A DNA stretch of 64,000 nt from an uncultured Candidatus Saccharibacteria bacterium. Its GTDB lineage: Bacteria; Patescibacteriota; Minisyncoccia; Phycocordibacterales; Zambryskibacteraceae. The stretch spans positions 77,173 through 141,172 of the forward strand of contig CAZYVS010000001.1 in assembly GCA_964651655.1 (NCBI GenBank). Reading direction: 5' to 3'. The notes under the pieces are model-generated. The model was not told the origin of the DNA. It did no database searches and was given only the letters and a program-made list of their open reading frames with translations. Position numbers and translations under genes: made by a program. The stretch's first letter is position 1. Every line of letters starts with the position of its first letter. This document shows positions 4,795 through 62,600 of the stretch, piece after piece.

Positions 4795-4844
4795 AGACCT
4801 GAGACTCCAGAGAAGTTTCTCTGGAGTCTCAGGTCTTTCTTTTT
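4795..4844 (+). terminator. perfect 20-bp inverted repeat (AGACCTGAGACTCCAGAGAA / TTCTCTGGAGTCTCAGGTCT) followed by TTCTTTTT; intrinsic-terminator-like hairpin or subterminal hairpin of the adjacent RAYT element
   Basis: Read directly in the sequence. It sits in the divergent region between proS (-) and the RAYT gene (+), with no upstream plus-strand gene. Confidence 0.45.
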
Positions 4845-4845
4845 A

Positions 4846-5562: not shown

Positions 5563-5575
5563 TATTAGACACTTG

Positions 5576-10326: not shown

Positions 10327-11322
10327 ATGATTGGTTTTATCTTGGCCGCTCTATTTATTTGGGGTCTCGCCTTGCTCCTTAGAGCAATAGCGAGTCGGGA
10401 AAACCCAACTATCGTCACTTTTGTCCCTGCTCAGATGCACGCGTTAGTGACGACAAAGAGTAATAAAGAAACGGATGTAACAAAGGGTGGAGGCAACATC
10501 GTCGATGCTATTCACGCTGTTCCCGGGAGAATACTAGACAAGTCTCCGATGGATCCCATGAATTGGTATTACAAGCTCGGCAGAGAATCCAGAGGAATTC
10601 TGTACTACCTGCTAGGAATTCAATTTATTGGAATCTTTCGGTATCTGCGCCTCAATGACGTGCGAACTTTCCGATTCGGTCGAAAAGATGAGGAAAGTGC
10701 ATATCGTCTACAGGCTAAGAGTGATCAGACTCGTTATGTTTTTTTCTCGGGTCAACATGATATACAAATTGAGGGTGTCGAAACAACTGGAATTCTCAAG
10801 ATTAATCTTCTTTTTAATCTGATCTATGAGGAGATCTTTCCAGTCAGGGTACGACTCCGAACAGCCGACCCTTATGCCGTTCTGACTATGATGGTGACTA
10901 GATTAGTCATCAGTAAGGTTGGCGGCACCGACCCAAAACTGCTTATCGCCGAGGAAACACGCCAGCGGGAATTGGCCGATGCTATACAGGAAATCGATCT
11001 TATAGTCGAAGAACAACTCGGTATTAGAATCATAAAGGTTACCCTGGCTGATGTGGCTTTCGACGCCGAGACTCAGAAGTTTCTCGAACTCGAGACCAGG
11101 ACACGTTTACAGAATGAAGCAGCTGTAGCGGTCGCCACTAAGGACAGGACAGTCCAGATTCTTGCCAATGATGCGGCTGCAGACCGAGTTGAGCGAGTGA
11201 TAAGACCTACAGCCGAGAACGATCGCACTGTAGCTGTACGAGTCGCCGAGGCGTATGAAAACAACAAGGTGGTAACAACATATGCGCCAGGAGCAAGTGC
11301 TATGTTGCCACTCGGGAAGTAG
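10327..11322 (+). CDS. SPFH/band-7 (prohibitin/HflK/C-like) domain membrane protein
   Basis: N-terminal TM, then a band-7-like region followed by a coiled-coil-rich tail. GGAGG RBS upstream. Confidence 0.6.
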   Translation: MIGFILAALFIWGLALLLRAIASRENPTIVTFVPAQMHALVTTKSNKETDVTKGGGNIVDAIHAVPGRILDKSPMDPMNWYYKLGRESRGILYYLLGIQFIGIFRYLRLNDVRTFRFGRKDEESAYRLQAKSDQTRYVFFSGQHDIQIEGVETTGILKINLLFNLIYEEIFPVRVRLRTADPYAVLTMMVTRLVISKVGGTDPKLLIAEETRQRELADAIQEIDLIVEEQLGIRIIKVTLADVAFDAETQKFLELETRTRLQNEAAVAVATKDRTVQILANDAAADRVERVIRPTAENDRTVAVRVAEAYENNKVVTTYAPGASAMLPLGK

Positions 11323-37099: not shown

Positions 37100-38197
37100 A
37101 TGAAAATTTTGGCTATTGAGACTTCCTGTGACGAAACCGCCATTGCCCTGCTTGATATAAAAGGCGCGTTGGAAAAGCCAAATATCAAGATATTGGGCAA
37201 TACTCTTTTGTCACAAGTGGCGCTCCACGAGCAATACGGTGGCGTTTATCCCAATCTCGCTAAAAGAGAGCATGAGAAGAATCTGCCACCGCTCCTAAAC
37301 CAAACACTCCGTGAGGCAAGAGAAAACCCTGAAAAACCCGATTTGGACTATATCGCCGTCACCAACGGTCCCGGCCTTGAACCGGCTCTTTGGGTTGGTA
37401 TCAATTTTGCAACAACACTCGGCAAGAGGTGGAATAAGCCCGTTATACCTGTAAACCATATGGAAGGACATCTCGTCTCGGTTCTATTCCGAGACGAGAA
37501 TGCAAAAATCAAAAATCAAAATGAAAAATTAGAATTACCGGCACTCGGACTCTTGGTTTCAGGGGGACATACCGAACTGGTGTATATCAAAGATTTTGGG
37601 AATTATGAAATCATCGGCCGAACACGAGATGACGCGGTAGGCGAAGCCTTTGATAAGGCGGCGCGCATGCTCGGACTCCCCTATCCCGGCGGACCAGAAA
37701 TATCTCGGCTAGCCGAGAAGGCAAGAAAAAGAACCACCAAAGACCGTATAAAATTGCCGAGACCGATGATTCATTCAGGAAATCTTGACTTCTCTTTCTC
37801 CGGACTCAAGACTGCCGTACTGTATAGACTTCAGAAAGAAGAAAAAATCACTGATATTTTTAAAGAAGATATGGCCAGAGCATTTGAAGATGCGGCGGTT
37901 GAAGTGCTTATAGACAAAACCGGCAAAGCTTTATTGGAACTGGAAGACAAAATTGTAACTCTTATTGTGGCCGGCGGTGTATCGGCCAATACTTATCTTT
38001 CTCAAGAACTTGAAAAACTTGTCAATCAATTTCCTAATCTTACCTTGAAAATGCCGTCTAAACTCTTAACCACCGACAACGCCATTATGATCGGTATTGC
38101 GGCTTTTATAAAGATAAGCAAAAAGCCGGAGATATTAAAAAATAAAAGTCCAATCATAGCTTTAGGCAACCTTTCACTTACTTCTTGGGTTCGGTAA
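37100..38197 (+). CDS. tsaD: tRNA N6-adenosine threonylcarbamoyltransferase TsaD (Kae1/YgjD)
   Basis: MKILAIETSCDETAIALLD and HMEGH metal-binding motifs. Confidence 0.9.
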   Translation: MKILAIETSCDETAIALLDIKGALEKPNIKILGNTLLSQVALHEQYGGVYPNLAKREHEKNLPPLLNQTLREARENPEKPDLDYIAVTNGPGLEPALWVGINFATTLGKRWNKPVIPVNHMEGHLVSVLFRDENAKIKNQNEKLELPALGLLVSGGHTELVYIKDFGNYEIIGRTRDDAVGEAFDKAARMLGLPYPGGPEISRLAEKARKRTTKDRIKLPRPMIHSGNLDFSFSGLKTAVLYRLQKEEKITDIFKEDMARAFEDAAVEVLIDKTGKALLELEDKIVTLIVAGGVSANTYLSQELEKLVNQFPNLTLKMPSKLLTTDNAIMIGIAAFIKISKKPEILKNKSPIIALGNLSLTSWVR

Positions 38198-40670
38198 CAA
38201 TAGCCTTAATATTTTCCTGCTCTTTGTCTTTGGGAATCAACTTGGGCAGGATTAAAACCGGTTCTGGTTCTTTAGGCTCTTTCTTTTCGCTATCTTCCTT
38301 GATATTGATATTCTTCAAAACAGATTTGGCCCGAGCGGTACCGACTAGATACCATGACTTAACAGAAGCTCTAATAGAATTATGTCTGAAGTAAGTGAAT
38401 GTCCAAATTAATGAAAGGATAAGAGTTAAAATTAACGGTAAGATAACGCACCACCATCCTATTATGTATGCCACCACGATAACAAGACCCGTGCCCACAT
38501 CAATAGTCAGCCATTTAGTAAAGAATCGTTTTCTAGCATTTTCAGAAACATTTTTATAAAGGACATCTTTAAGGACATTTCCTAGAATATACAGGATGAT
38601 TAGCACTAGCAGAAATTCATACGAACATTTCATTATGTCCAATAGATTATCCGGTAAGGCAAATATTGCGGCCGCTAGATTGCGAAGATTTTGTCCTTGA
38701 GAAGGCTCTGCTTCACCAACGATCGGTATGATTGGCGGAGTAGTAGTGGCAGTACCTGCCTCTCCTTCTCCACTACCCGACTCGGATGGTGGAAGTTCTA
38801 CATCAATCCCTTGTGCTCTTAAACTTTCAAGAAGTGCTCTGAAGGCAGCAATTTCGTTGAGTTGTGCCTGATTTAGAGGGAATATCCGTTGACAGTATAT
38901 CTCATTTATTTTCTTAAGAGTCAGAATATAAACATACCCAGTCGGACCGGTATGCCCCCACGGTTCAAGAATGTCGCTGAAGTACTTCATTTGAAATGCT
39001 GATACGGCATCAAAGGTCGCCTGATCAAAGACACCGGTAAGAGAAACCTCTTTATGTCCTTCAAAATTTATTAAAAAGCTTTGGAGTTTCAGAACCTCTA
39101 TCGGGTCATTGTCAAAATCTCTTCGCATGTAATCACGCAAGTAGAAACATACAGCTTCGGTCACTGTGCTAGACGTGGAGGGCCTGGAAGAACCACCGCT
39201 CGAAGATCCCGAGCTTGTCGAGGGGCCGCCACCTCCACTCCCTCCGCCACCGCCGCCATCACCGCCGCAATTTTCGGTGCAAACTTGAGCTCCATCATCA
39301 ACCGTGATATTTACACTGGAAGTGTTATCGTCCAGGTTTGAATCACTTTGAGTACTTGAGGCAACGGCGGTGTTGGTGATTGTTTTTCCTTCATTACCAA
39401 CTTTTACTGCGCTTACCAAAGTCAAAGTGGTAGAGGAGCTATTCCCCAGATCGCCAACTGTCCATATTCCTGTGGTTGTGGAATAACTACCGAGAGTGGA
39501 TGTCGCGGAAACAAAATCCAGTTCATTGGGTAAAACATCTGTTAAAGACACCCCCGTAGAATTATCGGGGCCGTTATTTATTATGGTGATTGTATAAGTA
39601 ACCGTATCGCCAACTTTAACCGTAGATTTGTCAACTATCTTTGTGGCAGTAAGATTGGCACTGGGAGATCCGCCGCCGACAGAATTCACGGTAAGAACAA
39701 AAGTTTTGGTATCAATCCCACAATCATTAGCCACAGATATAGTTATGTTAAAGTCCCCTGTCTCCGTCGGAATTCCGGAGATGATCCCCGTTGTGGTAGA
39801 GAAAGATAGTCCTTGAGGAAGACTGGATGTGGCCACGGAGAACGAGGTCGTAGTAGCAACCACACCCGTTGTAGTGGCAGTGATCGTGTATGAAAAAGAT
39901 TGACTAACGGTGGTCGTTGATAATAGTCCGCTGGTAATCGTCGGTAATGGACATACGGGCGGAGGCGGAGGGGGTGGTGGAGTTACCACTTCGTCAAACG
40001 CCACACAAAGGGGCGTTATACTGTTTGGATTGGTATCGCTAAAGGCTGCGTGAATAGCGGTTACTGAAACTGTGTTACTAGCCAATACCAAATTAGTTTC
40101 AACTTTTTCTTCCTTGTACTCCTCGTCACTTTCTAAATCGCTTATGGCACTAGTAGTGGCCATAGTCACACCAAGATTATCTTTCAATACTAAAAACCAG
40201 CTTTCATTCGGTTGAACTTGTGTTAGCTTAGCTAAGTGGTTGTCATAGGAAACCAGACTTATATCATAAGTACCGGCTAAAATAGATACTGAAATAGGAC
40301 CTTTGGTAGCGGCACTTAAAGTGCCACTAGATACGATAGAACCGCTACCGAGATTTACAATAGTTCTCCCATCTTTTGAAGTAAGTGGACAGGTTGGCGC
40401 ACTTGGAGGTGGAGGGGGTGGTGGGGGTGGGGGGCCGTCATCATCACAATCACAGCCATCGCCATCTCCACCATCTCCGCCCCCATCGCCGCCCCCATCG
40501 CCTCCATCCCCGCCACCGTCGCCGCCACCATCGCCGCCATCATCCGCATATACAACATGCGAAATATCAAGGGGCGAACCTATACTTATATGATAATACG
40601 AAGTAAAGCCGCGTACAGAAATAAGCAGAGCAAGACATGATATTAGTATGATTGTATAAATTTTTTGCAT
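38178..40670 (-). CDS. large secreted/membrane-anchored surface protein (PG-binding domain, DUF11 repeat, Ig-like domain, poly-Pro and (G/D)n linkers, C-terminal TM anchors)
   Basis: Signal peptide from MQKIYTIILISCLALL (the track ORF's extra 34 N-terminal aa translate a terminator hairpin). PPPPPPPPPP and DGGGDGGGDGG tracts, DUF11-like GDTVTYTITIINNGPDNSTGVSLTDVLP, PG_binding_1-like LQSFLINFEGHKEVSLTGVFDQATFDAVSAFQ. Confidence 0.7.
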   Translation of the reverse strand: MQKIYTIILISCLALLISVRGFTSYYHISIGSPLDISHVVYADDGGDGGGDGGGDGGDGGGDGGGDGGDGDGCDCDDDGPPPPPPPPPPSAPTCPLTSKDGRTIVNLGSGSIVSSGTLSAATKGPISVSILAGTYDISLVSYDNHLAKLTQVQPNESWFLVLKDNLGVTMATTSAISDLESDEEYKEEKVETNLVLASNTVSVTAIHAAFSDTNPNSITPLCVAFDEVVTPPPPPPPPVCPLPTITSGLLSTTTVSQSFSYTITATTTGVVATTTSFSVATSSLPQGLSFSTTTGIISGIPTETGDFNITISVANDCGIDTKTFVLTVNSVGGGSPSANLTATKIVDKSTVKVGDTVTYTITIINNGPDNSTGVSLTDVLPNELDFVSATSTLGSYSTTTGIWTVGDLGNSSSTTLTLVSAVKVGNEGKTITNTAVASSTQSDSNLDDNTSSVNITVDDGAQVCTENCGGDGGGGGGSGGGGPSTSSGSSSGGSSRPSTSSTVTEAVCFYLRDYMRRDFDNDPIEVLKLQSFLINFEGHKEVSLTGVFDQATFDAVSAFQMKYFSDILEPWGHTGPTGYVYILTLKKINEIYCQRIFPLNQAQLNEIAAFRALLESLRAQGIDVELPPSESGSGEGEAGTATTTPPIIPIVGEAEPSQGQNLRNLAAAIFALPDNLLDIMKCSYEFLLVLIILYILGNVLKDVLYKNVSENARKRFFTKWLTIDVGTGLVIVVAYIIGWWCVILPLILTLILSLIWTFTYFRHNSIRASVKSWYLVGTARAKSVLKNINIKEDSEKKEPKEPEPVLILPKLIPKDKEQENIKAIVTEPKK

Positions 40671-40727
40671 GAATTTGCAGTTCCTATTTCCGAAACACCT
40701 CTTGAAGAGACGTACCGGAAAAGAGAA

Positions 40728-40758
40728 CCATCGGGAGCGTGCAAAGCACGCTCCCGAT
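40728..40758 (-). terminator. intrinsic terminator hairpin (ATCGGGAGCGTGC-AAA-GCACGCTCCCGAT) downstream of the lipoprotein gene
   Basis: Perfect 13-bp stem, read directly. Confidence 0.55.
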
Positions 40759-40772
40759 GACCCAAAGAACAT

Positions 40773-45041: not shown

Positions 45042-45096
45042 ATTAAAATCTGATTTGATTAAATCTATCATAAACATAGTCAGTTTAAAATAAGCT

Positions 45097-45139
45097 ATCA
45101 GACAAGGTTAGCCATCAGACAAGGTCGAACCTTGTCGGG
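45097..45139. repeat. REP family 2 copy (…ACAAGGTTAGCC-ATCAG-ACAAGGTCGAACCTTGTC) upstream of RAYT2
   Basis: Palindrome GACAAGGTCGAACCTTGTC, read directly. Two more copies lie in-frame inside RAYT2 (45313-45333, 45821-45841). Confidence 0.7.
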
Positions 45140-45158
45140 CATGGGTTATAATTAATAA

Positions 45159-45839
45159 ATGACCAGAAACGTAACATTTGCTCCAGGAGAGTTTTATCAT
45201 CTATATAATCGCGGTACTGAAAAAAGGAAAATTTTTCTTAATCGCCAGGACTATGAGAGATTCCTATCACTTCTCTACTTAGCCAACGGAATGGCGCGCG
45301 TAGATATTAAGCGACAAGGTTCGACCTTGTCGGAATTACTAACTCAAGATAGAGATGAGAAACTTGTAGATATTTGTGCTTATTGTCTCATGCCAAACCA
45401 TTTTCATCTGATTGTAAGGGAAACTAAAGATTATGGAATAAGTAAGTTTATGCAAAAACTTATTACTGGATACACAATGTACTTTAATAAAGCGCATGAG
45501 AGAAATGGTGCCCTTTTACAAGGAAAATTCAAATCTGAACATGCCAACAGTGATCGTTATCTAAATTATCTTATTGCCTATTTACATCTAAATCCTATAA
45601 AACTTTTCGATCCCACATGGAAAGAACATGGGATTAAAGATCAAGAAAGGGCAGAAAAATTCTTAGATGATTATGTGTACTCAAGTTTCTTAGATTATAG
45701 TGGTTACGATCGATTAGAAAAAAGTATTCTTTCTTTGGACGCCCTCCCTGCTTATACTTCAATCCCAAAAGACTTTCGATCGAGCATCACTGAATGGTTT
45801 GACGGACAAGGTTCGACCTTGTCGATGCAACAATCATAG
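45159..45839 (+). CDS. REP-associated tyrosine transposase (RAYT) / IS200-IS605 TnpA-like Y1 HUH transposase, second copy
   Basis: FYHLYNRG, LMPNHFHLIV, AYLHLNP. Two REP palindromes are embedded in-frame, encoding …KRQGSTLSELL… and the C-terminal …DGQGSTLSMQQS. Confidence 0.8.
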   Translation: MTRNVTFAPGEFYHLYNRGTEKRKIFLNRQDYERFLSLLYLANGMARVDIKRQGSTLSELLTQDRDEKLVDICAYCLMPNHFHLIVRETKDYGISKFMQKLITGYTMYFNKAHERNGALLQGKFKSEHANSDRYLNYLIAYLHLNPIKLFDPTWKEHGIKDQERAEKFLDDYVYSSFLDYSGYDRLEKSILSLDALPAYTSIPKDFRSSITEWFDGQGSTLSMQQS

Positions 45840-46164
45840 CTGTAACGAATAGGTAAAAAATTACCTTTTGAGCGGGAGCCAATCCATCAAGAAGGAGATT
45901 CATAAGAACTTACTATCTATTTTGACGCCAAATCAACCATGTTCCTCCAATATAAAGAACAGCAGTCAGAGCATCATACCATCGTGTATCAGGAGGGTCG
46001 CCAAAGGAAGTATAAGCGAGGGTTCCTATAACTAAGATGGCGCCCAAAATTGATTGCGTAATTTTATTCATGCTTCTATTCTATCACATTTTTTAATGTA
46101 TAGGAGTCGCACCTAGTCAACATAATCCTTGAAAAGGAAAGATACTGGGTTATAATGCTTACTC

Positions 46165-46398
46165 ATGAACCCCGAAGAAAAGGCGCTTTTGGAGCGCACC
46201 TTGAAACTCTCTGAAGAGAACAATCGGATTTTGCAAAAAATGCAAAGAACGGCCCGCTGGGCCGTTCTTTGGGGATTCATAAAAATCACGATTATAATTG
46301 TTCCATTAGTGGCCGGTTATTTTTATCTTCAGCCCTTTTTAGAACAAGCAATGGAAAATTATAATACTTTCAGAGACCTGCTCAACGTTACAAATTAA
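46165..46398 (+). CDS. hypothetical small membrane protein
   Basis: 77 aa with one TM segment. No homology signal. Confidence 0.3.
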   Translation: MNPEEKALLERTLKLSEENNRILQKMQRTARWAVLWGFIKITIIIVPLVAGYFYLQPFLEQAMENYNTFRDLLNVTN

Positions 46399-46405
46399 AA
46401 AATAG

Positions 46406-46480
46406 GCCGCGGTAGCTCAGTGGCAGAGCGCTACCCTGAAGAGGTAGGCGTCGGGTGTTCGATTCACCCCCGCGGCACCA
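46406..46480 (+). tRNA. tRNA-Phe (anticodon GAA), CCA encoded
   Basis: Hand-fold: acceptor GCCGCGG/CCGCGGC, D-arm GCTC/GAGC, anticodon loop CTGAAGA, T-arm GGGTG-TTCGATT-CACCC, then ACCA. Confidence 0.85.
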
Positions 46481-46484
46481 CTAC

Positions 46485-46739
46485 TTATTTAGAAACATCA
46501 AGCAAGCTTGAAAGTTTGCTTTTGTCAAAGCCGATAACGATATCTTTGTCATCAATCACGATTACCGGCACGCCCAGTTGTCCGCTCTTTTCAACCATTT
46601 CTGTCCTTTTGGCGGTATTGATGCCGACGTTGTAATCGGTAAAGGGAATATTGTTGTCAGTAAAAAATTTTTTAGCCATCTGACAGAAATGACAGCTTTC
46701 AGTTGAATAAATTTCAATTTTTTTCCCATTATTATTCAT
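46485..46739 (-). CDS. glutaredoxin/NrdH-like thioredoxin-fold protein
   Basis: IEIYSTESCHFCQMAKKFF (CxxC) and GVPVIVID. Confidence 0.7.
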   Translation of the reverse strand: MNNNGKKIEIYSTESCHFCQMAKKFFTDNNIPFTDYNVGINTAKRTEMVEKSGQLGVPVIVIDDKDIVIGFDKSKLSSLLDVSK

Positions 46740-47118
46740 AGAACGACATTATAGCATCCAAAAATTTTTTATACCACGGCAAATTTGAGCTATCGGTTGA
46801 AGTGGACGCTCTGCGATCATCAACAATAATCGCCACAAATTCGCCTTCTTGCGTCACGTTAAACTTTTTCCTAATTTCATCTTTGATGCCTTCTTCGGTC
46901 TCCAGACGACGAATATTTTCCCGAATTTCTGATTCTCGAATGACCATGGCTTTCGCTTTCCTCTCCAGGTTTTTTGAATCATTTCTGCTTTCTATTTCTT
47001 TACCCATTATCCCCAGAGTTCCTCTGACAAGTAAAATAGTGATAATCAACAAAACAATGAGTAAGGGGGTGGAGTAAAGAGCGCGTCTGATTCTTTGTTT
47101 TTTCTCAAATATTTTCAT
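46732..47118 (-). CDS. hypothetical bitopic membrane protein with coiled-coil (FtsB/DivIC-like architecture)
   Basis: N-terminal TM then a charged helical region. Architecture only. Confidence 0.35.
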   Translation of the reverse strand: MKIFEKKQRIRRALYSTPLLIVLLIITILLVRGTLGIMGKEIESRNDSKNLERKAKAMVIRESEIRENIRRLETEEGIKDEIRKKFNVTQEGEFVAIIVDDRRASTSTDSSNLPWYKKFLDAIMSFYE

Positions 47119-47291
47119 ACAACAGATGGAAAAGAGTTACTCCTATGGTAACATAATCAATATGTTGTTCGACAGAAGGCATAAAAAGAAAGTAAAAACG
47201 GCATGGATGATACTCTCTATTCTAATTATTTTAAGTATGATTTTGCTCTACGCGCCATTTTTCTAAGACTAATCCGGATTTTATCGGCTTC

Positions 47292-49166
47292 TTAACGAGA
47301 CGAGCGAATCATCTTAAGAAAAACGTCTTGAGGAACATTGACCTTCCCTCGTTCTTTCATTTTTTTCTTGCCTTTCTTTTGTTTCTCACGAAGCTTCATT
47401 TTGCGAGTGACATCTCCACCATACATATGTTGAGTAACGTCTTTTTTCATACCGCTTAAAGTACGAGAAGCGACGATTCTACCCATAACTCTTGCTTGGA
47501 TTTTCAAAGTAAACATCTGTCTGGGCAATATAGTGGCCAGTTTCTCCACATCCGATTCGCATTCCGTTTCTATTTGTCGGCGCGAGATTACTTTGGCAAA
47601 TGCCGGAACCACCTCATCGGCTATCAAAATATCTAAACGAGTGACATTGGCTCGTCTTTCGCCAGAAATTGTGTAAGAGATGGAACCGAAACCCGACGTG
47701 ACACTTTTAAGTTTATCAAAAAATCCCCTCATCAATTCGCGCAGAGGCATTTCAAATGTCATAGATGTCCGATTCTCACCGAAGTCTTTTGTTTCCTTCA
47801 ATTCGGCCTCAAACTCATAGAGAAGCTGAATAACGGGACTGATAAATTCTGGAGGAATAATTATCGCGGCTCTCACCCATGGTTCCCAAACCGAATCTAT
47901 TAGATACTCTTCCGGAAAAAAGGAAGGGGTATAGATGTAACCTTCACGGCCGTTCTTGTATATGATTCTGTAAGTGATGCTGGGCAAGGTTATAACCAGA
48001 GATAAATTAAATTCGCGTCTCAATCTTTCGGTAATAATTTCCAAATGAAGCATGCCGAGAAAACCGGTGCGGAAACCTCGACCCAGTACTTTGGAAGATT
48101 CTTCTTCAAACGAAAAGGCGGAATCCGATAATCGTAATTTTGAAAGAGCCTGACGCAGAAGAAAGAAATCAGCCCCGCCTCGCGTCGATGAGCGACCGCG
48201 AGTCGAGGCGGGCTGACTTTCCGGATAGATAGAGGCCCAGACCACCGGCCGAGACTTTTCATAACCGGAGAGAGCTTCAGACGTATCGAGCAAAGAAGCC
48301 ACCGTATCTCCCACGGAAGCAATACCGGGTTCTTTGATACCGGTTACAATGTATCCGATTTCTCCGGAAGATATTTGGTCGGCTTCCGTCTCGTTCGGAG
48401 TCAGAAATCCCACTTCAAGCGCCTGAAACGATCGGCCGGCCGCTTTAAACTTTAATTTGTCGCCCCGATTTACGGAACCATTAAAAACACGGACAAAAAC
48501 AATCACCCCCCGATGGTTAGAGTATTTGAAATCAAAAACCAGAGATTTAAAGGTTAGACCTTGAGAATGGGTATTTAAGGTCTGACCTTGGTGCGGGGCT
48601 GGAATTCGTTTTACTATTTCCTCAAGAAGTTTCTCAACACCTTCGCCCGTTTTCCCGGACACCGGCAGGACGTCTTCCTGTTTAATCTTCAGTAGTCTGG
48701 ATATCTCATCCCGCGTCTCTTCTACGCGGGCTAAAGGAGAATCTATTTTAGAAACGACGGGAATAATTTTGAGCCCGGCGGATTGGGCCATTTCCAAAGT
48801 AGTTAGAGTTTGAGCTTGTACTCCTTGAGTAGCATCCACTAGAAGTATTGAACCCTCTACCGCACGAAGGGCTCTTGAGACTTCATAGGAGAAATCTATG
48901 TGACCGGGAGTATCAATCAAATTTAATATAAAGGTCGAACCTTGGGAATCAGTATTTAAGGTTCGACCTTGGGGAATGTACACCATCCTCACCGGTTGCA
49001 TTTTTATGGTAATGCCGCGTTCGCGTTCCAGTTCCATGGAATCAAGCACCTGTTCGCGCATTTCTCGCTTTTCAATCGTCCCGGTCAGTTCAAGCATTCG
49101 GTCTGCTAAAGTGGATTTGCCGTGATCAATATGGGCGATAATAGAAAAATTACGAATATTATCCAT
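47292..49166 (-). CDS. lepA: translation elongation factor 4 (LepA) carrying two 14-aa in-frame REP-encoded insertions
   Basis: AHIDHGKSTLADR, DTPGHIDF, NKID-equivalent SKID, plus the C-terminal LepA domain. 624 aa equals a typical ~596 aa plus 2x14. Insertions QGRTLNTDSQGSTF (G domain) and QGQTLNTHSQGLTF. Confidence 0.9.
   Translation of the reverse strand: MDNIRNFSIIAHIDHGKSTLADRMLELTGTIEKREMREQVLDSMELERERGITIKMQPVRMVYIPQGRTLNTDSQGSTFILNLIDTPGHIDFSYEVSRALRAVEGSILLVDATQGVQAQTLTTLEMAQSAGLKIIPVVSKIDSPLARVEETRDEISRLLKIKQEDVLPVSGKTGEGVEKLLEEIVKRIPAPHQGQTLNTHSQGLTFKSLVFDFKYSNHRGVIVFVRVFNGSVNRGDKLKFKAAGRSFQALEVGFLTPNETEADQISSGEIGYIVTGIKEPGIASVGDTVASLLDTSEALSGYEKSRPVVWASIYPESQPASTRGRSSTRGGADFFLLRQALSKLRLSDSAFSFEEESSKVLGRGFRTGFLGMLHLEIITERLRREFNLSLVITLPSITYRIIYKNGREGYIYTPSFFPEEYLIDSVWEPWVRAAIIIPPEFISPVIQLLYEFEAELKETKDFGENRTSMTFEMPLRELMRGFFDKLKSVTSGFGSISYTISGERRANVTRLDILIADEVVPAFAKVISRRQIETECESDVEKLATILPRQMFTLKIQARVMGRIVASRTLSGMKKDVTQHMYGGDVTRKMKLREKQKKGKKKMKERGKVNVPQDVFLKMIRSSR
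48550..48591. repeat. REP family 2 composite element (AAGGTTAGACCTT-GAGAATGGGTATTT-AAGGTCTGACCTT-GG), 42 nt, in-frame in lepA
   Basis: Read directly. Confidence 0.8.
48931..48972. repeat. REP family 2 composite element (AAGGTCGAACCTT-GGGAATCAGTATTT-AAGGTTCGACCTT-GG), 42 nt, in-frame in lepA
   Basis: Read directly. Same architecture and spacer length as the 48550 copy. Confidence 0.8.
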
Positions 49167-53253: not shown

Positions 53254-53572
53254 GGTGTCGGATAGTTGCCCCGATATTATGTCGGGGAGGAAAGTCCGAA
53301 CATTCGTTGTGAGATGTCGCACATGTGCAATTTCACAAAAGGGTAGCAGGTAACACCTGTCGGGAGTAATCCTAGAGATGCGAACAGTGACGAAGCCGGC
53401 TTGCCTCGCCTTGGCGGGGTGAATCCGGAGTGAAACGGCAAAATTCTTACCTGAATGCAAGGCCGTGTCCCGATTCACCATGTGTGAATCGTGGAAGTGC
53501 CGCTATAGGTTCTAAGCGATTAGAATCACAGATAAATAACTATCGACAACAGAATTCGGCTTATAGACACCC
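53254..53572 (+). ncRNA. rnpB: RNase P RNA (bacterial type, compact)
   Basis: GAGGAAAGTCCGAAC (P4 5' strand), GGGTAGCAGGTAACACCTG, GAGTGAAACGGC, ACAGAATTCGGCTTA (P4 3' strand). P1 pairing GGTGTC/GACACC. Own promoter TTGTTA-N17-TATAAT at ~53217-53246. Ends are approximate (+/-5 nt). Confidence 0.8.
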
Positions 53573-53573
53573 A

Positions 53574-53608
53574 ACCCCGCCCCGACATATGTCGGGGCGG
53601 GGTTGTTT
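53574..53608 (+). terminator. intrinsic terminator (CCCCGCCCCGACAT/ATGTCGGGGCGGGG + TTGTTTTT) of rnpB
   Basis: Perfect palindrome followed by a T-run, read directly. Confidence 0.7.
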
Positions 53609-53628: not shown

Positions 53629-56600
53629 CTACCTTGCTAGCTCCAAATATTTATCCCTCGATAAAGACCCGAAATATCCAACCGAGGGAACGACATTATT
53701 AGATCGTTGCCACCTTGAGAGAGCGTTTCTAGTCGCCGGGCCAAAATAATTACTCTCGTTACCAAAAGAACCCGGACCAGAAAGAGAGACGGTAAAACCA
53801 CCGGCGTTCAAATATTTTTGTAAGCACCTGACGTCTTCTCCCACAGAACCAAGCGTCAAGTTTCTATTAAATGAACATGTGGACAACAATATTGGGGGTT
53901 GTCCTTGGCTGATTAGCGCGTTATTTATTAGGATTCGCAATTCAGCAATTTTGGCCGAGAGTATAACAATCTTTTGGTCTGTAGTTAAAGAATTGAAATT
54001 AGATGGCAGAAGTCCGACGGAAGTTGTAACAGAACTGGCGGATGAAGAACCACTACTACTACGACTACCACCCCCGCCCCCTCCACCACCACCTGAAGAT
54101 TGAGCTTGGGATATCGGCGTGGGAGTAGAAGTGGGTGCGGAAGTTGAAGATGAAGCCGGGGCGGTAAAGCTGACCGTTGCCGGGTCAGAGTAATTATTCT
54201 GATCATCTACAACGAACAAGGAATAGTAGTAGACAGTGCCAGGAGTAACATCCTTGTCTGTGTAAGTGTTACCAGTCGTAGTGGCTATTTGTGATAGAGA
54301 GTCATAGGAAGTAATAAAACCTGTAATGGAGCGCAGAATGGCGACACCGACATAACCGGGGAAACTTACTTGGGGCCAGGTTAAGATAATAGAACCGGGA
54401 GTAACAGTGATGGATGAGATGGCGGGAGGTTTGGGTCTGACTTCAAAGATTAGGTTGGCTGAAGTGCCAGTTACGCTAGAAGCAGCCGATGCCGCTCTTA
54501 GATTATATGGACCTGGAGTAAGTCCTGATAAGGTGACGCTATGAACAGTAGTTAAGGTGGAATTCGTCGGTGATGATCGACCATAAGCAGACGTGGCGCC
54601 ATAATCAACCCAGGTAGTGGCTGGTACATTGGTGGACCAGGTGACAGTAGCCGTGCCTTGACTGATAGAGACTTTGGGACCAGAAATTATCGGAGCAGAT
54701 GGAGAAGAAGTAGGAGTTGCTTGCGGTGAGCTTGTCGAATCCGGAGTTGGAGTTGGAGTCGGCGTGGGGGTAGGAATTGAGGTAACTGATCCCAAAGGAA
54801 CAAGCTCAATTTTATCAGCAATAAGCGTGCCTGTGTTTTGGTAGTTGCTATTGATATTGACAATGGAATAAGCTCCGGCAGAAGAAGAGGTGAATGTGAA
54901 GTTGGTTGTTGCCGAGCCGAAAGCCGGAATAGTGACGGATGACATCGGATACCATGTTCCTGCCGCTCCGGAGGAAATTCTGTCCGGGTCGGTAAAGCTG
55001 ATATTGGGGGTGAAAGTGATGGAAGAGGAAGTATTGTTGTACCAGGTTGCCATTATCTTTTCTCCCGAAGAAAATGTTCTTGTTGAACCGGTTACTCCCT
55101 GATAGTTGTAAGTCCAGTTGTCGCCTACTACTATAGCTGTCCCTCCGGGACCGATAGCTCGGTAATCAGTGTAGATGTCTTTGATAGGCGTTGACCAGCC
55201 GCTTAAGCCAAAAATATTTTGCGCGCTAGTCGAGCCGAAGTTAATAAGAGTAATTATCCCGCCAGAAACTGGAGTTGGCGTAGGCGTTGGGGTTGGTGTT
55301 GGAATTGGCGTAGGAATCGGTGTTGGGGTAGGAGTTGGTCCGCCAGCTGGCGGAGGAGTTGGAGCAGAAGATAGCGCAGTTCCGCTTGGGTCCGCAATCG
55401 GATTTCTTGAAATAATCAAATCATCGTACCAAGTGTAAGCGGTCGGGTGGACTTGGGAGCTGTCTTTGCCGGTATGATATGGAAGCAACCATATTTTCCC
55501 ATAGCGCATATCTTCAGCGGCAGACCCCGCAGAAAGAGCATACGGCCCCCAGTTAAACACTTGCACCGGGGGCTGTCCTTCGCGCGACACCCATAAATCC
55601 ACATGACTATCCCTCCATTCATCATTGACTCTAGGCCCGGTATGAATATGGGCCTGAAAAGTCATCCACTCACCGGCAAAATATTTAAAACAATTGCCCG
55701 GAGGATTGGTTTGGGCCGCGCCTAACTTCCAATTTTGGGAGTACAGGCAATATGGCGACGGCATGGCATTTTGCAACTTGAAATCGTAACTGCCAAAAAG
55801 CTCCTGAAAAGGATCGTATGCTCCATGCGAAGCTGAACCGGTGCAGGAGTTATACATGGCCGGGAAACCGCGCAAATTAATATTCTGCACTACGGTTTCT
55901 AAGGCCGTACATGAAGAATAGAGCGCACCGGGCTTATCGCCGGCGCTAATAATTAGCTGTTTCCAGCCAGCGGCAGGCAAATAGTTTGTAGAAATAAATT
56001 CCGGCGAGAATTTCTGCCTCCATTGCACATAAAAATCCGAGTTTTCTCCAAACCGAATGGAAAGATCGGGTGAAAAATTCGCAAACCACTGGCCGGAAGC
56101 ACCCGAACCTGATTGCGATGGAATGATAAATTTCATTGAGCCTCCGCCGTCCGCAGAAGTTGTCAAATCAATCGTCGGGGTAAGTCCGCCTGAAGTGTTA
56201 TTAAACGCGCCGACGTTTGCTCCGTAAGCATTGGATCCAACAACTCCGAGATCAGCGCTTGAGTCAAAACTAAAACATCTGATAACGCCGGCGGCACTAC
56301 AGCGGGCTTGGAAATCAGAAGATCCTAAAATTGGAGTAGGTGTTGGAGTGGGGGATGGCGTGGGCGTTGGTGTTGGTGTTGGAGAAGGAGTTGGTGTAGG
56401 TGTAGGAGTTGGCGTAATAACTGTTCCCGAACTCGCTGAATGTTTGTATAGATAGACTCTCCCTCCGGATGAACTACCCGCCTGGACAAACATGATAACG
56501 CCGTAATTTGAAATTGGAACAGCTATGGTTTCGGTCACGCCTCCCTCCGGTCCCGGAAAAATAGGACTTGTTCTGTTAATGGTAGACCAAACGTTTGTAG

Positions 56601-59600
56601 CCGGGTCGTACTGATACATAGTTGTCCATGCGTTGGAATAATCCCAAACGAGGATTAATCCCGTAACCGGATCTACGGTAAATATCGTCCCAGCCCCACC
56701 CTGTGGAATATTAATGGCCACGGGCGCGTCAGCGGTAGCCGTAAACGTCCCATTCGAATTGTACCGATACAACTTTCTGCTGTTATTGCCTCCTCCCAGA
56801 ACTACACAATTGCATTTCGAGCTATACCTCGCCTGGTTGTGGTAAGAATATAAGCCCGTCAATTGAGGCGAGAAGCCGCCGCCGTTAGTGCTTGCGCGCT
56901 GAACCCATGCTCCGTTGCAATTTCCGGACGCCAAAGACAATTCCCACACTCCCCAATCGCCGTCCAAGAAAACAAGACTGTTGCGATCTGGAAAATATTC
57001 AAGGGCGCCACCGACTTGGAACGCGCCATTGCCCCAGTTTGTGCAGGCAGACCATGTTTGTGTGGCATGACTATATTTTCTAATTTCGGCGGAGTAATAC
57101 CTGCGATGATAGAAGTTCCCTGCCGAATCTATCGCCGAGTGTTCGTACTCATGGGACACGCTTGCGGTGTCCGCGGGAGTCAAATTGCTCCAGGTGTTAT
57201 TTGATTCCGTGTATTTAACAAAACAGTTAATGCTACCACCCGGACCGCCGTTAGGATGAGAGGAACCGGAAATCATTGCGGTGTTATTGAGCGGATTCCA
57301 ATAACCCTCGTCTGCGTATTCCGCACAGCTTCCGGTCGCAGGCGGCCGCAAAATCGCGCCGTCGTTAAAATTATTGGTCGTGAGCGCCGCCCATGTGCCC
57401 GGCTGCATGGAAGCCGCCAAACCTGAAAGCGATGTGCCAGTTATTGTCGTTGTAGGTGTTGGAGTAGGTGTCGGTGTTGGCGCCACATACTTCACCAAAT
57501 AATCTTCCGCAGACCAGCCGTCTACTCCTGAGTCAAAATTAATATTCCACCAATTGTATCCTCCGGCATTGGTCGGACCTCCGACTACGGTACCCAAAGC
57601 TCCTGTGGCTTGGGTGCCAAGAAGAGTTCCGTTGGCGGTGGAGCGGACGTTGAGAGGTCCTGAAGAAACCTGGACTCGGTCATTGATGGAGAATTTGGTG
57701 GAAGGGGTTACCGCAGATACCGCGAAATTCTGGCTTAGGGCAAGGCGTGTACCATAACCATTTTGGGCAAAATATCTGAAGTTGTAATTTCCTGAGACAG
57801 TGGGAACTATGAATGTCAAAGTGGCCGCACTCAAGCCTACGGAGGGTTGAGTTTGTGTTCCATTTAAGTATTGCCAGTTGCCGTTGGGGTGAGCGGTGTC
57901 TGAGACGGACCAAGCTGAATCTGGATCTGAGGAATTGTAGAGAGCCACCCATTCCTGAACTCCACTTACTCCCCCGCTGACTGTGGCTGTGATCGTTCCT
58001 CCCGAAGCTACGGAGGTTTTGTTGATGGAAATGGAAGCGGTTGTTATCGTCGGCGCATTAACCGTCAAAATAAATGTTGAAATTTTAGTAACTAATCCTG
58101 CGGTGGCAGTTACGGTTATCGTAGAGTTTCCAGTCGGCGTTGATGAGAGAGTGTTAATGGTAAGGGTGGGTGAACAGGTCGGAGAGCAGGAAGTTGGAGA
58201 GAATGAAGCGGTAGCTCCTGTGGGAAGACCGGAAACGGTAAATCCTGTTGATTGAGTAGTTCCGGAAGAAAGGGTGGCGGTTACGCTGTTTGAAACTGAC
58301 GATCCCCTTGTGACTGATTTCGATCCTCCGTTGGAGAGAGTGAAGTTGAAAGCTGCGGGTGTTGGAGTTGGCGTGGGAATCGGGGTCGGCGCAACATACT
58401 TCACCAAATAATCCTCCGCAGACCAGCCATCAACTCCTGAATCAAAATTGATGTTCCACCAATTGAATCCTCCGGCATTAGTCGGGCCGCCGATGACTGT
58501 ACCGAGAGCGTTTGTTGTTTGCGTTCCGAGAAGTGTTCCGTTGGCGATGCTTCGGACATTGAGAGGTCCGCTGGTAACTTGGACTCTATCGTTGATTGAG
58601 AATTTGGTTGAAACTGGCGGTGAAGTTGGAGTGGGAGTGGGGGTGGGGGTGGGCGTGGGAGTTGGTGTTGGTGTTGGTGTTGGTGTTGTAACTACTCCCC
58701 CATATTCATACGCGCCGATGTCGTAGGCAGAGCCGACGGGGCGTGTTACCCCATCAAAATCTTTGTCGTACGGAGAGCCTAAAGTTGCTCCAGCGTTAAT
58801 GGCTGGGCTGCCTGACTGCAACCGGAAGTTGCTAAGACCAGGATCGATAAAGAGTGGATTTGAGACGACAGAACATCCTGTAGCTGACGTATCACAGAGA
58901 TTATTTGATTTGATCGAGCCTGACCCATCATCATTTATATCCCTCGTATAACCACACCCGGCGGTGCAGTTGTTCCAAGAGATGTTATTTTTGATTACAG
59001 CGTTCGATGTGCCAGCCTGAGGCCTGACGGAAGTTTCTCTGTTGCCTGTCATCGTATTGTTGTAGACTTTGGTGCCACTGGCCCCATTGCCAATCGAGAT
59101 CGCTGCTCCGCAAGTCTGGCCCATGTTGCCATGTAGGTTGGTAATGAGGTTGCCATAGACCTCGATGTTGTTGCCATCGTAGGTGATAATCCCTTGACCG
59201 CACAGAGTGTTATCCCATTGCGTGCCGGCGCCGCCGCTTGTATCGTGGAACCAATTATATCTGACGATGTTCCCGTGAGTCTTGTTAGCATCGCCGGTGT
59301 AGATTTGTATTCCGGCGCCGGCCCAACCATAAACTTCATTTCGCTCGAACAAGTTATACGGAGTCAATAAGTATACCGCGTTGTTGTAGTTAACCGTATG
59401 TTGCGCATCGAAAGGGACAGTTCCGCCATCATGTATTTTGTTGTTTATGAACTCATTGTAACCGGTTCCGCCAGTCGTCACGGAAGACACAATACCGTGC
59501 TGGGGGCCGTTTTTTATCTCGTTGTTGATAATCCGGATGTGATGGGAACCACTTCCGATCCACACCACCGCATCATCACTTGGGTTACCAGTAATAATAA

Positions 59601-62600
59601 AGCCATCGATAACAAGATAGGATCTGGTGCTGATTCCCAACGCATTGCTAATCGTAACAACGTCGGCGCCGTATCGTTGAATCGTCGTCGGACTACTCCA
59701 TGACGTGCCGGACGGTGGCATCGTGGTTGGAGAAGCATACGTCCCGGCTTTAATCTGAACCGTATCGCCGCTCGACATACAGGAGAAAGCGGAATCAAGC
59801 GTTAATTTCGGCGTTGCCTGATTTTTTGCGGCCGTACAGGAGTTTGAATCGCTTCCAGTTGTTGCAACATAATAAACATTTCCTGTAGTTGAAGTTGTAG
59901 GTGTTGGCGTGGGGATTGGAGTCGGAGTCGGCGCAACATACTTCACCAAATAATCCTCTCCGCTCCAGCCATCAGGCGCATTGTCAAAATTAATCTGCCA
60001 CCAGTTGACCGTGTTTCCGCTAAGCAAGGCCGCGGTTGGACCTCCGATGACCGTGCCAAGAGCGTTTGTTGCTTGAGTGCCAAGAATCGTTCCTGCCGGA
60101 GTTTGGCGGACATTGACCGGACCTAAAGAAACTTGAACACGGTCGTTGATTGAGAATTTAGTGGAGACTGGCGGTGAAGTTGGAGTGGGAGTGGGGGTGG
60201 GGGTGGGCGTGGGAGTTGGTGTTGGTGTTGGTGTTGGTGTTGTAACTACTCCCCCATATTCATACGCGCCGATGTCGTAGGCAGAGCCGACGGGGCGTGT
60301 TACCCCATCAAAGTCTTTGTCATAAGGAGCGCCAAGATTTGCTCCGGCGTTGATGGCGGGAGAGGAGGATTGGAGATGGAAGTCGTTTGCGGTTGGGTTT
60401 ACAAATAACGGGTCTTGTTGTGAGCCGCTGCATACGTTCACATTTGTGGAAACCTGATGGCAGAGATTATTTGCCATGGTTGCCGCAGCGCCATTGTAAT
60501 AAATAATTCCTGAATTGGCATTTTTTATGATGTTGTTCTTGATCAAAGTGCCGATCGCTCCGCCGGAGTAGCCGACTTCAATAGCTGAAGCTGCGCCATA
60601 AATTGTATTACTATAGACAAGTGTATTGCTTGCACCGCGGGAGACACCAATTCCATGAGCCTGCGGATGGTTATAGATTAAGTTATTGTAGATCTGTTTA
60701 TTGTTCCCCTGCGACACAACAACACCGCCATAGGCAATATTGTCGTGGATAAAATTGTTGCGAATGATAGAGTTTGATATCGTGCCGCCGTACCACTGAA
60801 TACCATAACCATAATTGTTATAAATCTCATTGCCTTCAATAAGTAAGCCGTCGCCGACCTGGTAAAAACCATGGTCTGCCGGAGTGTCGCCATTGTGGTG
60901 AATCTTTGAACGCAGTACTTCTACTCCGTTACAATCGCTGAACACTCCTTGTCCGCCAAAGTTCCTTATTTCACCATTTTGAAATCTAATATTGCTTGCA
61001 CCAGAATAACAAACTATACCATCTCCCGTTCTCCCAAAACTTGCATCCTCGGAATTAATTGCGGTAATACCGCTGCCATCCAAAACCAGCCTGTCAAATA
61101 TTATATATCTTGCCGCCGCACCAATGATGGTAATGCCTTCTGGCGCACTATTTGTAGGCTTGATGATTACCACCTCGCCAGGGTATGAGGCTATCAACGG
61201 GGCATTGGAAAATGATGTTCCAGCAGGCCATAAAAAGCTGTTGCCGCCGAGCCGCTCGGCGTAAGCACCGGCGCGAATGTAAAGAGTATCCCCGGCGGCA
61301 AGACAGAGTATGCCAGCATTTATCGTCCTCTTCGGCGTATTAATATTCTTCGCCTGCGCGCAAGTATTTGCATCGTTGCCGGTGGTGGCTACATAATAAA
61401 CATTTCCCGTGGTAGTAATTGTGGGCGTAGGGGTGGGAGTTGGCGCAACATACTTCACCAAATAATCCTCCGCAGACCAGCCATCAACTCCTGAATCAAA
61501 ATTGATGTTCCACCAATTGAATCCTCCGGCATTAGTCGGGCCGCCGATGACTGTACCGAGAGCGTTTGTTGTTTGCGTTCCGAGAAGTGTTCCGTTGGCG
61601 ATGCTTCGGACATTGAGAGGTCCGCTGGTAACTTGGACTCTATCGTTGATTGAGAATTTGGTTGAAACTGGCGGTGAAGTTGGAGTGGGAGTGGGGGTGG
61701 GGGTGGGCGTGGGAGTTGGTGTTGGTGTTGGTGTTGGTGTTGGTGTTGGTGTTGGTGTTGTAACTACTCCCCCATATTCATACGCTCCGATGTCGTAGGC
61801 AGAGCCAACTGGCCTTTGAACTCCGTCAAAGTCTTTGTCATAAGGAGCGCCTAAAATTGCTCCGGCGTTGATGGCGGGAGAAGTGGACTGGAGATGGAAA
61901 TCTTTTCCTGCCGCGTTTACAAAAAGAGGGTTGGCGACGATAGCGCATCCGGTCTTGCTAACGTCGCAAAGATTTGTGCCAAAAGTTGGTGGTGAACCGC
62001 TATTAACAACAACCATGCCGTAGCTGTTCGATCCTGGAATGATGATGTTGTTCTTTACCACGCTCGTGCTGTTGGTGGTTATAAAAGGAAAACAATTCGA
62101 GTTAGTATTGTGAATCGTATTATTGTAAATATTAATCGGTCCTGTTGTGTTATTAAGGGCGATAATCGGTCCTCCTTCTGTATTGGTATTACGGCAGGCA
62201 TAAATCAGGTTATTGTGAAGGCTAATATTTTGAGCGTAAGATGAGAACTGAATTCCCGGAGCGCCCCAATGCGGCGAGCCCGTATCCTGGATCGCAAAAT
62301 CACGAATAACGTTATAGCGAATTTCACCTCCATCTGTGCGCCTATCGCTTGTTGCTTCGCCGTATTTAATAGCCGCGGAGCCTGTATTGTAAAAATTGCA
62401 GCGCTCTACAATCGCTCGCTTCCCTTCGTTATATATCGGGAATGAGCCAGCGGTATCGACTTCCCCGCCTATGTCGTGCATTACACAATTTTGAATAAGA
62501 ATGTCGGCGGTATTACGCTGAATGATGAATCCGTTTCCCATAGTGACTCCTGCTCCCGCGCCATAAAGTTCAAAATTTTTGAATGTGAGATGATGTGAAC

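Follow-up and report, generated by a model that had tools for sequence, protein, structure and literature searches.

Background

In REPIN/RAYT systems, copies of the same repetitive extragenic palindrome (REP), or doublets of it, lie on either side of the gene for a Y1 transposase, the REP-associated tyrosine transposase (RAYT), and different RAYT genes of one genome have different cognate REPs. REPINs are extragenic by definition and number tens to hundreds per genome; two inverted REPs forming one long hairpin are said, in work by Bertels and Rainey from 2011 and by Nunvar et al. from 2010, to be the replicating unit. Here we analyse a stretch of 64,000 nucleotides (64 kb, hereafter the window) of contig CAZYVS010000001.1 (assembly GCA_964651655.1) from a metagenome-assembled genome of an uncultured bacterium of the Patescibacteriota (Candidatus Zambryskibacteria), in which two inverted doublets of a 13-nt hairpin motif lie in frame within lepA, the gene encoding elongation factor 4 (EF4), close to a RAYT-like gene designated RAYT2. 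These doublets belong to a dispersed family, lie in the coding sequence of many genes, differ in presence among LepA orthologs and are associated with RAYT-like genes. They are probably miniature, non-autonomous mobile elements of REP type that belong with a RAYT-like Y1 family and have been kept in frame in tolerant loops. As in REPIN/RAYT systems, an inverted REP pair is able to form one hairpin, and the window contains two pairings of a RAYT-like gene with its hairpin. Unlike REPINs, both window doublets are inside lepA and about half of the sampled doublets are intragenic; there are 2 doublets in the 64 kb available, and at 28–54 nt the doublets are smaller than Pseudomonas REPINs.

REPs and REP dimers lying wholly within open reading frames (ORFs) and read through have been described by Di Nocera, De Gregorio and Rocco (2013, BMC Genomics 14:522; PMC3733652) in Opitutus, Thauera, Xanthomonas, Stenotrophomonas and Rickettsia. 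The hosts there are genes for DNA ligase, tRNA synthetases and replication or repair proteins, sometimes with two insertions per gene and sometimes with insertions at the same site in related species, and REPs of the GTAG class were tied to RAYT genes as 'REPtrons' (PMC3733652). The doublets of the window resemble these elements in being short stem-loops arranged as inverted dimers inside ORFs of known proteins. They differ in their Patescibacteria host, in a core of the form AAGGT-NNN-ACCTT without a GTAG or CGTC tag, in coding for 9–18 aa as against 20–30 aa for those dimers, and in the associated Y1 genes, which are distantly RAYT-like and often carry a third, internal hairpin copy.

Rickettsia palindromic elements (RPEs) were reportedly described by Ogata et al. 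in 2000. A review gives them as in-frame palindromic inserts of Rickettsia of ~100–150 bp (PMC10969869). Like RPEs, the elements studied here are palindromic repeats that lie in frame in a large number of unrelated housekeeping genes in bacteria with reduced genomes, and the host proteins are apparently functional. Unlike RPEs, they are 3–4 times shorter, have a different core, occur in a different phylum and have their hairpin in common with a Y1 transposase family; RPEs are unrelated to them in sequence and without a transposase link. Insertion sequences of the IS200/IS605 type carry an HUH/Y1 gene between subterminal hairpins, move by a single-strand mechanism without target duplication and have gene-less two-end derivatives. 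Hairpin-bounded HUH/Y1 units and gene-less two-end elements are also what is found here, but the protein exceeds TnpA in length by ~70 aa, the coding sequence overlaps with the hairpin ends and contains a third copy of the hairpin, and no multi-copy identical units were seen in the loci examined.

No report of in-frame REP or palindromic inserts in bacteria of the candidate phyla radiation (CPR) was found in the literature searched. An earlier reading of the window from its letters (hereafter the sequence-only reading) was aware of no description of such inserts, either in CPR-like genomes or for REPs associated with RAYTs. The CPR setting and the element family are apparently new, but intragenic RAYT-associated REPs and dimers are already known (PMC3733652), so the concept as such is established. 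Judged by the same literature, five features appear to be new: the CPR/Patescibacteria lineage; the untagged AAGGT-NNN-ACCTT family in 28–54-nt doublets; a distant RAYT-like family whose internal hairpin co-varies with the flanks; the repeated occupation of the same loops of EF4 by many families of elements; and the excess conservation and cassette-like replacement of the inserts.

Hairpin doublets in lepA

The 13-nt core AAGGTYNRACCTT has seven exact matches in the window, at positions 45121, 45316, 45808, 48550, 48577, 48931 and 48958, whereas shuffling of the 64-kb sequence gave an expectation of 0.01 and none of 100 shuffles reached seven. All seven are confined to 45121–48970, three of them at the Y1-transposase gene and four in lepA. 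The features of lepA are:

47292–49166, minus strand: lepA (EF4), 624 aa, host gene with three in-frame palindromic inserts
48931–48972, minus strand: REP doublet 1 (site 1), AAGGTCGAACCTT, 14 nt, AAGGTTCGACCTT; codes for QGRTLNTDSQGSTF, aa 66–79
48550–48591, minus strand: REP doublet 2 (site 2), AAGGTTAGACCTT, 14 nt, AAGGTCTGACCTT; codes for QGQTLNTHSQGLTF, aa 193–206
48170–48215, minus strand: third in-frame insert (site 3), CAGCCCCGCCTCG...CGAGGCGGGCTG; codes for PASTRGRSSTRGG

The lepA product contains the full EF4 domain set (Pfam GTP_EFTU, GTP_EFTU_D2, EFG_C and LepA_C) and matches solved EF4 sequences with E values of 1e-142 to 1e-159 (9e-159 for T. thermophilus EF4, 5imq). Alignment to these sequences opened three gaps in the reference, corresponding to three extra segments in the window LepA. 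The protein is identical to the LepA on GCA_016185455.1, and independent assemblies from ENA, JGI and NCBI carry the same inserts, which excludes an assembly artefact as their source.

The two 42-nt elements had been recognised in the sequence-only reading with the sequence found here, as had their composition of two cores and a 14-nt spacer; what had been missed is that the arms are reverse complements of each other. Each element consists of two 13-nt hairpin motifs in inverted orientation, with cores 27 nt apart, and is a REP dimer or REPIN-like doublet. The arms of doublet 1 (48931/48958) are 100% reverse complementary and those of doublet 2 (48550/48577) have one mismatch. For both doublets the predicted fold is a 13-bp stem with a 14-nt loop, with a minimum free energy of -18.6 kcal/mol (z -6.35) for doublet 1 and -13.1 kcal/mol (z -5.4) for doublet 2. 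Over their full length, with the spacer, the two doublets share 81% identity. The core with a YSR loop is stop-free in all six frames, and the order of the loops in doublet 1, CGA...TCG, is the order found at the two ends of the RAYT2 unit.

The third insert, overlooked in the sequence-only reading, is a GC-rich palindrome of a family distinct from the AAGGT doublets (-32 kcal/mol, z -3.1) and coincides with a 13-aa gap in solved EF4 sequences. Compared with insert-free orthologs, the net gains are +13 aa at site 1, +7 aa at site 2 and +13 aa at site 3. The earlier statement that each doublet adds exactly 14 codons is therefore incorrect as a net insert size, and the apparent agreement of the protein length with canonical LepA plus 28 aa is a coincidence, because insert-free relatives have 589–592 aa. 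Site 1 is a beta-hairpin loop of the G domain, site 2 the linker between the G domain and domain II, and site 3 the linker between domains II and III. These assignments are based on the alignment to solved EF4 and on the secondary structure of an AlphaFold2 model of the window LepA built from a 27-sequence alignment; the model was used for secondary structure only, and placement of the inserts on it in three dimensions was dropped because the mean predicted local distance difference test score of 45.7 was too low. Designation of lepA as essential, also made in the sequence-only reading, was too strong, since the gene is highly conserved yet dispensable in Escherichia coli. Peptides predicted to span inserts of the window LepA include MVYIPQGR and TLNTDSQGSTFILNLIDTPGH.

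A dispersed family of doublets

JGI metagenomes were scanned with the pattern AAGGTYSRACCTT, 0–30 nt, AAGGTYSRACCTT, of which arm complementarity was no part. The scan returned at least 133 doublets in at least 120 loci, and all counts for the family given here are among the matches listed. AAGGT-NNN-ACCTT doublets are a large family in DNA of Patescibacteria (Paceibacteria/Parcubacteria), and in groundwater metagenomes such elements are found in frame in numerous housekeeping genes. Just two of the 133 are in lepA genes (L199 and L203), so the elements are a repeat family and not unique to lepA, in line with what the sequence-only reading had supposed. The arms were exactly reverse complementary in 117 of the 133, compared with 1 in 8 by chance. 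Spacers measured 2–28 nt, with modes at 10–11 and 14 nt and frequent occurrence of GAAT[TC]C, giving doublets of 28–54 nt that code for 9–18 aa.

Fifty-nine of the 133 doublets were inside ORFs of at least 250 aa, where every one of the three phases was represented and the translations were QGxTL, KVxPL or xRSDL; 56 were outside any ORF of at least 90 aa. With a coding density that we take to be ~90% in these genomes, this means that doublets are depleted in genes, yet far from excluded. A Pfam scan of host ORFs found clear domains in 19 of 20. The host proteins comprised SecA, PurL, a class-I aminoacyl-tRNA synthetase, a ClpB-like ATPase, PriA, PheT, TopA, DnaG, TypA, ArgRS and IF-2, as well as a glycosyltransferase, TPR proteins with as many as three doublets, a LepA in which site 2 is occupied by another doublet, with a 7-nt spacer, and LigA with two doublets, both of which are clean 12-aa gaps against E. 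coli LigA.

This recurrence bears on whether the palindromes were formed in place by template switching during replication (quasi-palindrome formation or correction) and not by transposition. Correction of this kind could produce exact and co-varying arm complementarity without selection, and several of the other lepA inserts are unique-looking palindromes. Local switching copies neighbouring sequence, however, and here the same 13–14-nt arms recur in unrelated genes, on unrelated contigs and in RAYT flanks, similar spacers containing GAAT[TC]C recur across unrelated genes and contigs, and the two lepA doublets share 81% identity although they are 381 nt apart. We consider formation in place highly improbable as the origin of the doublets; template switching may help to maintain the symmetry of the arms after insertion.

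Insert polymorphism among LepA orthologs

Insertion of palindromes in frame, as proposed from the window alone, was borne out by the presence and absence of the elements in close orthologs, with palindromy kept in the DNA. Doublet 1 was present, with compensated arms, in L002 and L004 and absent from L006, L007 and L009, in which the empty site reads Y-KE-Y. Doublet 2 was present in L002 and L006, replaced in L007 and absent, leaving a short loop, in L004 and L009. The site-3 insert was absent from L002, L004 and L009, had a longer nested version in L006/L007 and a variant in L008.

Loop lengths were surveyed in the 120 closest LepA proteins (~70–88% identity). Baseline lengths at sites 1, 2 and 3 were 8, 13 and 8 aa, and there were many longer versions too. 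At site 1 the AAGGT doublet was found in 12 proteins, and others had an 18-residue insert of the HPNGPERSEGREY type or AT-rich elements of 34–49 residues. Site 2 held the AAGGT doublet in ~30 proteins, a 14-aa AHGQRGKFATAGTAF allele in 15, and an insert of the QFPEERPRGTPLGLSSG type or others; at site 3 there were several GC-rich insert types. A codon alignment of seven orthologous lepA genes revealed further inserts at three additional sites, and nearly every length difference among the seven is an in-frame palindrome able to form a hairpin, including a perfect palindrome with a 20-bp stem at site 2 of L008. The exception is site 2 of L007, where the AHGQRGKFATAGTAF allele showed no structure when folded as a hairpin (z 0.09), which excludes it as a further palindromic element. 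Because the length differences at shared loops are palindromes of unrelated families, EF4 of this clade is a hot spot in which unrelated palindromic elements occupy the same loops.

L006 and L007 differ at only 45 of 7,100 positions around lepA, and 29 of the 45 differences fall in a single 57-nt tract (10570–10626), which holds the AAGGT doublet in one strain and the equal-length AHGQRGKFATAGTAF allele in the other. The AHGQRGKFATAGTAF allele was also found in more distant lineages.

One AT-rich site-1 insert of 30–41 aa (RPKFPISNSQFPINESISNEN...KLKIENSNSE) occurs in L008 (10001–11956) and in LepA proteins P0004, P0017, P0020, P0036, P0038, P0041 and P0082. The two halves of this insert form an imperfect inverted repeat, whose mismatches would become G:T pairs on the antisense strand, and the insert may represent a separate element family widespread in Parcubacteria.

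Conservation of the doublets at the DNA level

The window lepA is 71–80% identical in nucleotide sequence to the genes of L002, L004 and L006, with third codon positions 42–59% identical; the doublets, by contrast, are 88–98% identical and share 12–14 of 14 third positions. Where amino acids are identical, the codon is identical too in 82–100% of doublet codons, against 43–59% elsewhere in lepA. A change in one arm is compensated in the other at site 1, with CGA/TCG in the window and L004 and CGG/CCG in L002, and the arm pairs found at site 2 among the 120 closest LepA proteins include QGQTL/QGLTF, QGPTL/QGRTF and QGRTL/QGSTF. A functional QGxTL peptide motif was rejected as the explanation, because codon identity is far above that of the rest of the gene and because in other genes this DNA occurs in each of the three reading phases.

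Conservation of DNA would also be expected if the hairpins were kept in lepA for a function, for example as structures of the mRNA or DNA at domain boundaries by which translation is slowed in favour of co-translational folding or mRNA stability is affected, and mobility had been their means of delivery only. The location of the sites in a beta-hairpin loop and two interdomain linkers agrees with such a function, as do the compensated arm changes, the conservation of doublet DNA, spacer included, far above synonymous lepA sites, and the unrelated hairpin families that the same three sites hold in different lineages. On the other hand, many close orthologs are insert-free at 589–592 aa, the same doublets lie between genes as well as, in each of the three phases, within dozens of genes unrelated to one another, and the alternative allele at site 2 of L007 is unstructured; the reuse of sites is accounted for by insertion tolerance of the loops without any function. 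Retention for function is, in our judgement, improbable.

A different extension of the idea of mobile hairpins is that a lodged doublet serves as a landing pad at whose hairpins RAYT-like enzymes cut and swap in other family members by site-specific cassette exchange or conversion, the internal hairpin of the RAYT-like genes (see below) being a site in cis for sensing or controlling the enzyme's own gene. It is suggested by doublets that are 88–98% identical across lineages saturated at synonymous sites, by arms that always change together, and by strains which are 99.4% identical over lepA and differ by a clean replacement of 57 nt at site 2. We put this forward tentatively and think it rather unlikely. 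If true, the result would be a self-maintaining hairpin/transposase system that continually rewrites surface loops of core CPR proteins.

RAYT2 and its cognate hairpins

RAYT2 and the hairpins associated with it are:

45159–45839, plus strand: RAYT2, RAYT-like HUH/Y1 transposase gene, 226 aa, 1.5 kb from lepA
45100–45108: half-copy of the 5' hairpin, AGACAAGGT
45118–45137, plus strand: 5' cognate hairpin, GACAAGGT-CGA-ACCTTGTC, 21 nt before the RAYT2 ATG and 76 nt from tRNA-Arg
45313–45332, plus strand: internal cognate hairpin, (C)GACAAGGT-TCG-ACCTTGTC(G), coding for RQGSTLSE, 24 codons before HUH
45805–45824, plus strand: 3' cognate hairpin, GACAAGGT-TCG-ACCTTGTC, coding for GQGSTLSM and overlapping the last RAYT2 codons

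The RAYT2 product matched Pfam Y1_Tnp with 35.1 bits (cut-off 23 bits), and its residues H81-F-H83 (HUH) and Y141-x-H143-x-N145-P146 are invariant in 36 homologs. The sole NCBIfam match was REP_Tyr_transpos (NF047646), an equivalog model with a cut-off of 80 bits, below which both RAYT2 (44.5 bits) and a second window gene described below (39 bits) remain. A profile of the 36 RAYT-like homologs gave no match to PDB sequences. As in RAYT genes, which are flanked by at least two cognate REP copies, there is one copy on either side of RAYT2 (45118 and 45805), and the loop of the 3' hairpin is the reverse complement of the loop of the 5' hairpin. The two copies reported inside RAYT2 in the sequence-only reading (QGSTLS) are present, but they do not represent colonisation of the gene, because the internal hairpin is conserved in the subfamily and co-varies with the gene's own flanks; the C-terminal copy is the 3' flank hairpin itself.

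The RAYT-like family is large, with 3,818 protein matches at an E value no higher than 1e-20. GTDB species genomes contained at least 600 matching stretches, from which 80 loci were kept (L010–L089), and the named records among these are all Patescibacteria/Paceibacteria. In 61 of the 80 genes the same perfect hairpin was found at both ends, once immediately upstream of the start codon and once either at the stop codon or directly downstream of it, with a sequence that varies from locus to locus. Sixteen of the 80 have a third, internal copy ~24 codons before HUH that matches their own flanks, for example CGGAGGACGGTCCTCCG in L074, TCCAAGGGCTCCCCTTGGA in L040 and a 13-bp stem in L025. The internal QG[RS]TL peptide is conserved in the RAYT2 subfamily, Q53 and L57 being invariant in the 36 homologs, only because the DNA palindrome is conserved, and the protein sequence at this point is dictated by the palindrome. 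A cis-regulatory site or an alternative transposon end are candidate roles for the internal hairpin.

AAGGT doublets directly flank RAYT-like genes in L098, L164, L177, L010, L015, L019 and L024, and 1.17 Mb of DNA around RAYT-like homologs contained 80 single cores and 13 doublets. The RAYT/REP link drawn in the sequence-only reading therefore stands as far as the shared hairpin is concerned (61/80); the further step, that the RAYT-like protein is the mobilising enzyme, is suggested by shared sequence and adjacency.

Compared with five syntenic genomes, the RAYT2 unit is an insertion of ~1.06 kb between tRNA-Arg(CCT) and a conserved gene for a 77-aa protein. Positions 45043–46164 contain the RAYT2 unit and ~340 nt that include a possible 52-aa ORF, where the five relatives have a gap of ~60–150 nt. 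The absence of the unit from the syntenic site argues for its mobility. The window contains a second gene of this kind:

4879–5550, plus strand: second RAYT-like Y1 transposase gene, 223 aa

The hairpin of this gene, TACATAGCCC[CT]C[GC]CCTATGTA, is unrelated to that of RAYT2 and is present in two copies upstream (4844–4884) and one copy overlapping the C-terminus (5544–5565). A perfect hairpin with a 20-bp stem is located nearby at 4795–4836.

Such units might alternatively be small autonomous insertion sequences similar to IS200/IS605, and the doublets their deletion derivatives of miniature inverted-repeat transposable element (MITE) type, 'PATE'-like and composed of a left-end and a right-end hairpin, with no domesticated RAYT/REPIN partnership. 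The RAYT2 unit is missing at the same tRNA-Arg site in five relatives, Y1_Tnp genes are found at different places in syntenic loci, the CGA...TCG order of doublet 1 equals that of the RAYT2-unit ends, and the NCBIfam scores are far under the RAYT equivalog cut-off, all of which is consistent with this explanation. It is at odds with the finding that two identical copies of a unit were seen in no locus examined, with the unrelated hairpins of the two window Y1 genes, and with proteins of ~220 aa that have the Y-x-H-x-NP motif of RAYT type and the RAYT model as their sole NCBIfam match. An origin from autonomous insertion sequences is possible, though we doubt it.

Origin and maintenance of the doublets

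If the doublets are REP-type elements mobilised by a RAYT-like protein, as we favour, the Y1 enzyme would recognise the hairpin on single-stranded DNA and would cut and rejoin at the hairpin foot, like the TnpA of IS200/IS605 and the RAYT of E. coli, thereby moving or copying hairpin pairs. Doublet 1, with the loop order of the two ends of the RAYT2 unit, looks like such a unit from which the intervening gene has been lost. Elements could land anywhere, and selection would retain insertions that preserve the frame, are free of stops and are located in surface loops or interdomain linkers. Under such selection for frame, absence of stops and tolerant loops, the lepA inserts, whose frame is preserved, are most likely translated as extra loops of 13–14 aa, and would be neutral.

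Several observations weigh against this reading. A single ancient neutral insertion fails to explain the conservation of the doublets, since near-identical doublets at the same codon in genes with saturated synonymous sites would require that the nucleotide sequence is constrained, that insertion has recurred, or that the site has undergone exchange or conversion. Cores in the 64 kb available are confined to a 4-kb cluster comprising RAYT2 and lepA, unlike the dispersal of high-copy REPs, and the loops of doublet 2 (CAG/CTA) do not match those of RAYT2 (CGA/TCG). The cognate hairpin of a RAYT locus recurred within 10 kb in 16 of 56 listed combinations of hairpin core and locus, mostly in intergenic DNA; with so few extra copies, there is no strong support for local dispersal. 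L002 and L006 have kept lepA doublets while the RAYT-like genes nearby have other hairpins, and the doublets of L067 differ from the local RAYT hairpin. The flanks of AAGGT hairpins are variable (GACAAGGT, TCCAAGGT, TACAAGGT and AGTAAGGT), and a conserved GTAG at the hairpin foot was absent from the AAGGT hairpins compared; TAGG is found inside the stem of some other cognate hairpins.

Implications for CPR proteins

CPR/Patescibacteria have tiny genomes that are usually seen as poor in mobile DNA, a view with which doublets in EF4, IF-2, LigA, TopA, PriA, DnaG, SecA and aminoacyl-tRNA synthetases contrast. The inserts are a concrete source of unexplained length variation and of 'low-complexity' loops in CPR proteins, and it would be advisable to mask them in marker-gene alignments, phylogenies and structure predictions. 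They can be used as strain-level markers, and the doublets amount to a natural replicated experiment on the tolerance of loops to insertion. With a short hairpin and an enzyme of 226 aa, the system is also tractable for studying how Y1 transposases move REP-type elements.

Other palindromes and repeats in the window

A perfect 46-nt palindrome at 6428–6473 (ACTTGGAAGCTCAACCTCCAAGT and its reverse complement; -40 kcal/mol, z -9.5) is in frame in the gene for an RseP-like site-2 protease (ORF 5576–6700, minus strand) and codes for QLGSSTSKYLEVELPS. It corresponds to a 10-aa gap in E. coli RseP and is a hairpin doublet of a different family. The palindrome at 2866–2892 in the gene for MreB (2320–3384, minus strand) was rejected as an insert, as it codes for the conserved motif DIGGGTADI. 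The DNA encoding this motif is an inverted repeat with perfect arms of 13 bp (GATATCGGCGGTG G CACCGCCGATATC); the peptide is symmetric under reverse complementation, and the choice of codons makes the symmetry exact. At 46243–46271 a perfect hairpin with a 13-bp stem (CAAAGAACGGCCC GCT GGGCCGTTCTTTG), coding for QRTARWAVLW, lies in the 77-aa ORF (46165–46398, plus strand); orthologs of this ORF are equal in length, so the hairpin is not obviously an insert.

Between a TPR gene and a 3408-aa ORF there is a perfect GC-rich palindrome of 34 nt at 53572–53605 (CAACCCCGCCCCGACAT and its reverse complement), which resembles the GC-rich family at site 3 of lepA and could also be a terminator. The 3408-aa ORF itself (53629–63855, minus strand) contains several copies of a module of a few hundred nucleotides, ~1.5 kb apart, and long runs of GTTGG(A/C/T) type in DNA with a period of 6–12 nt, which suggests that its predicted product is a giant repetitive surface protein. 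Another ORF (38178–40772, 864 aa) has poly-Pro and Gly/Asp-rich runs.

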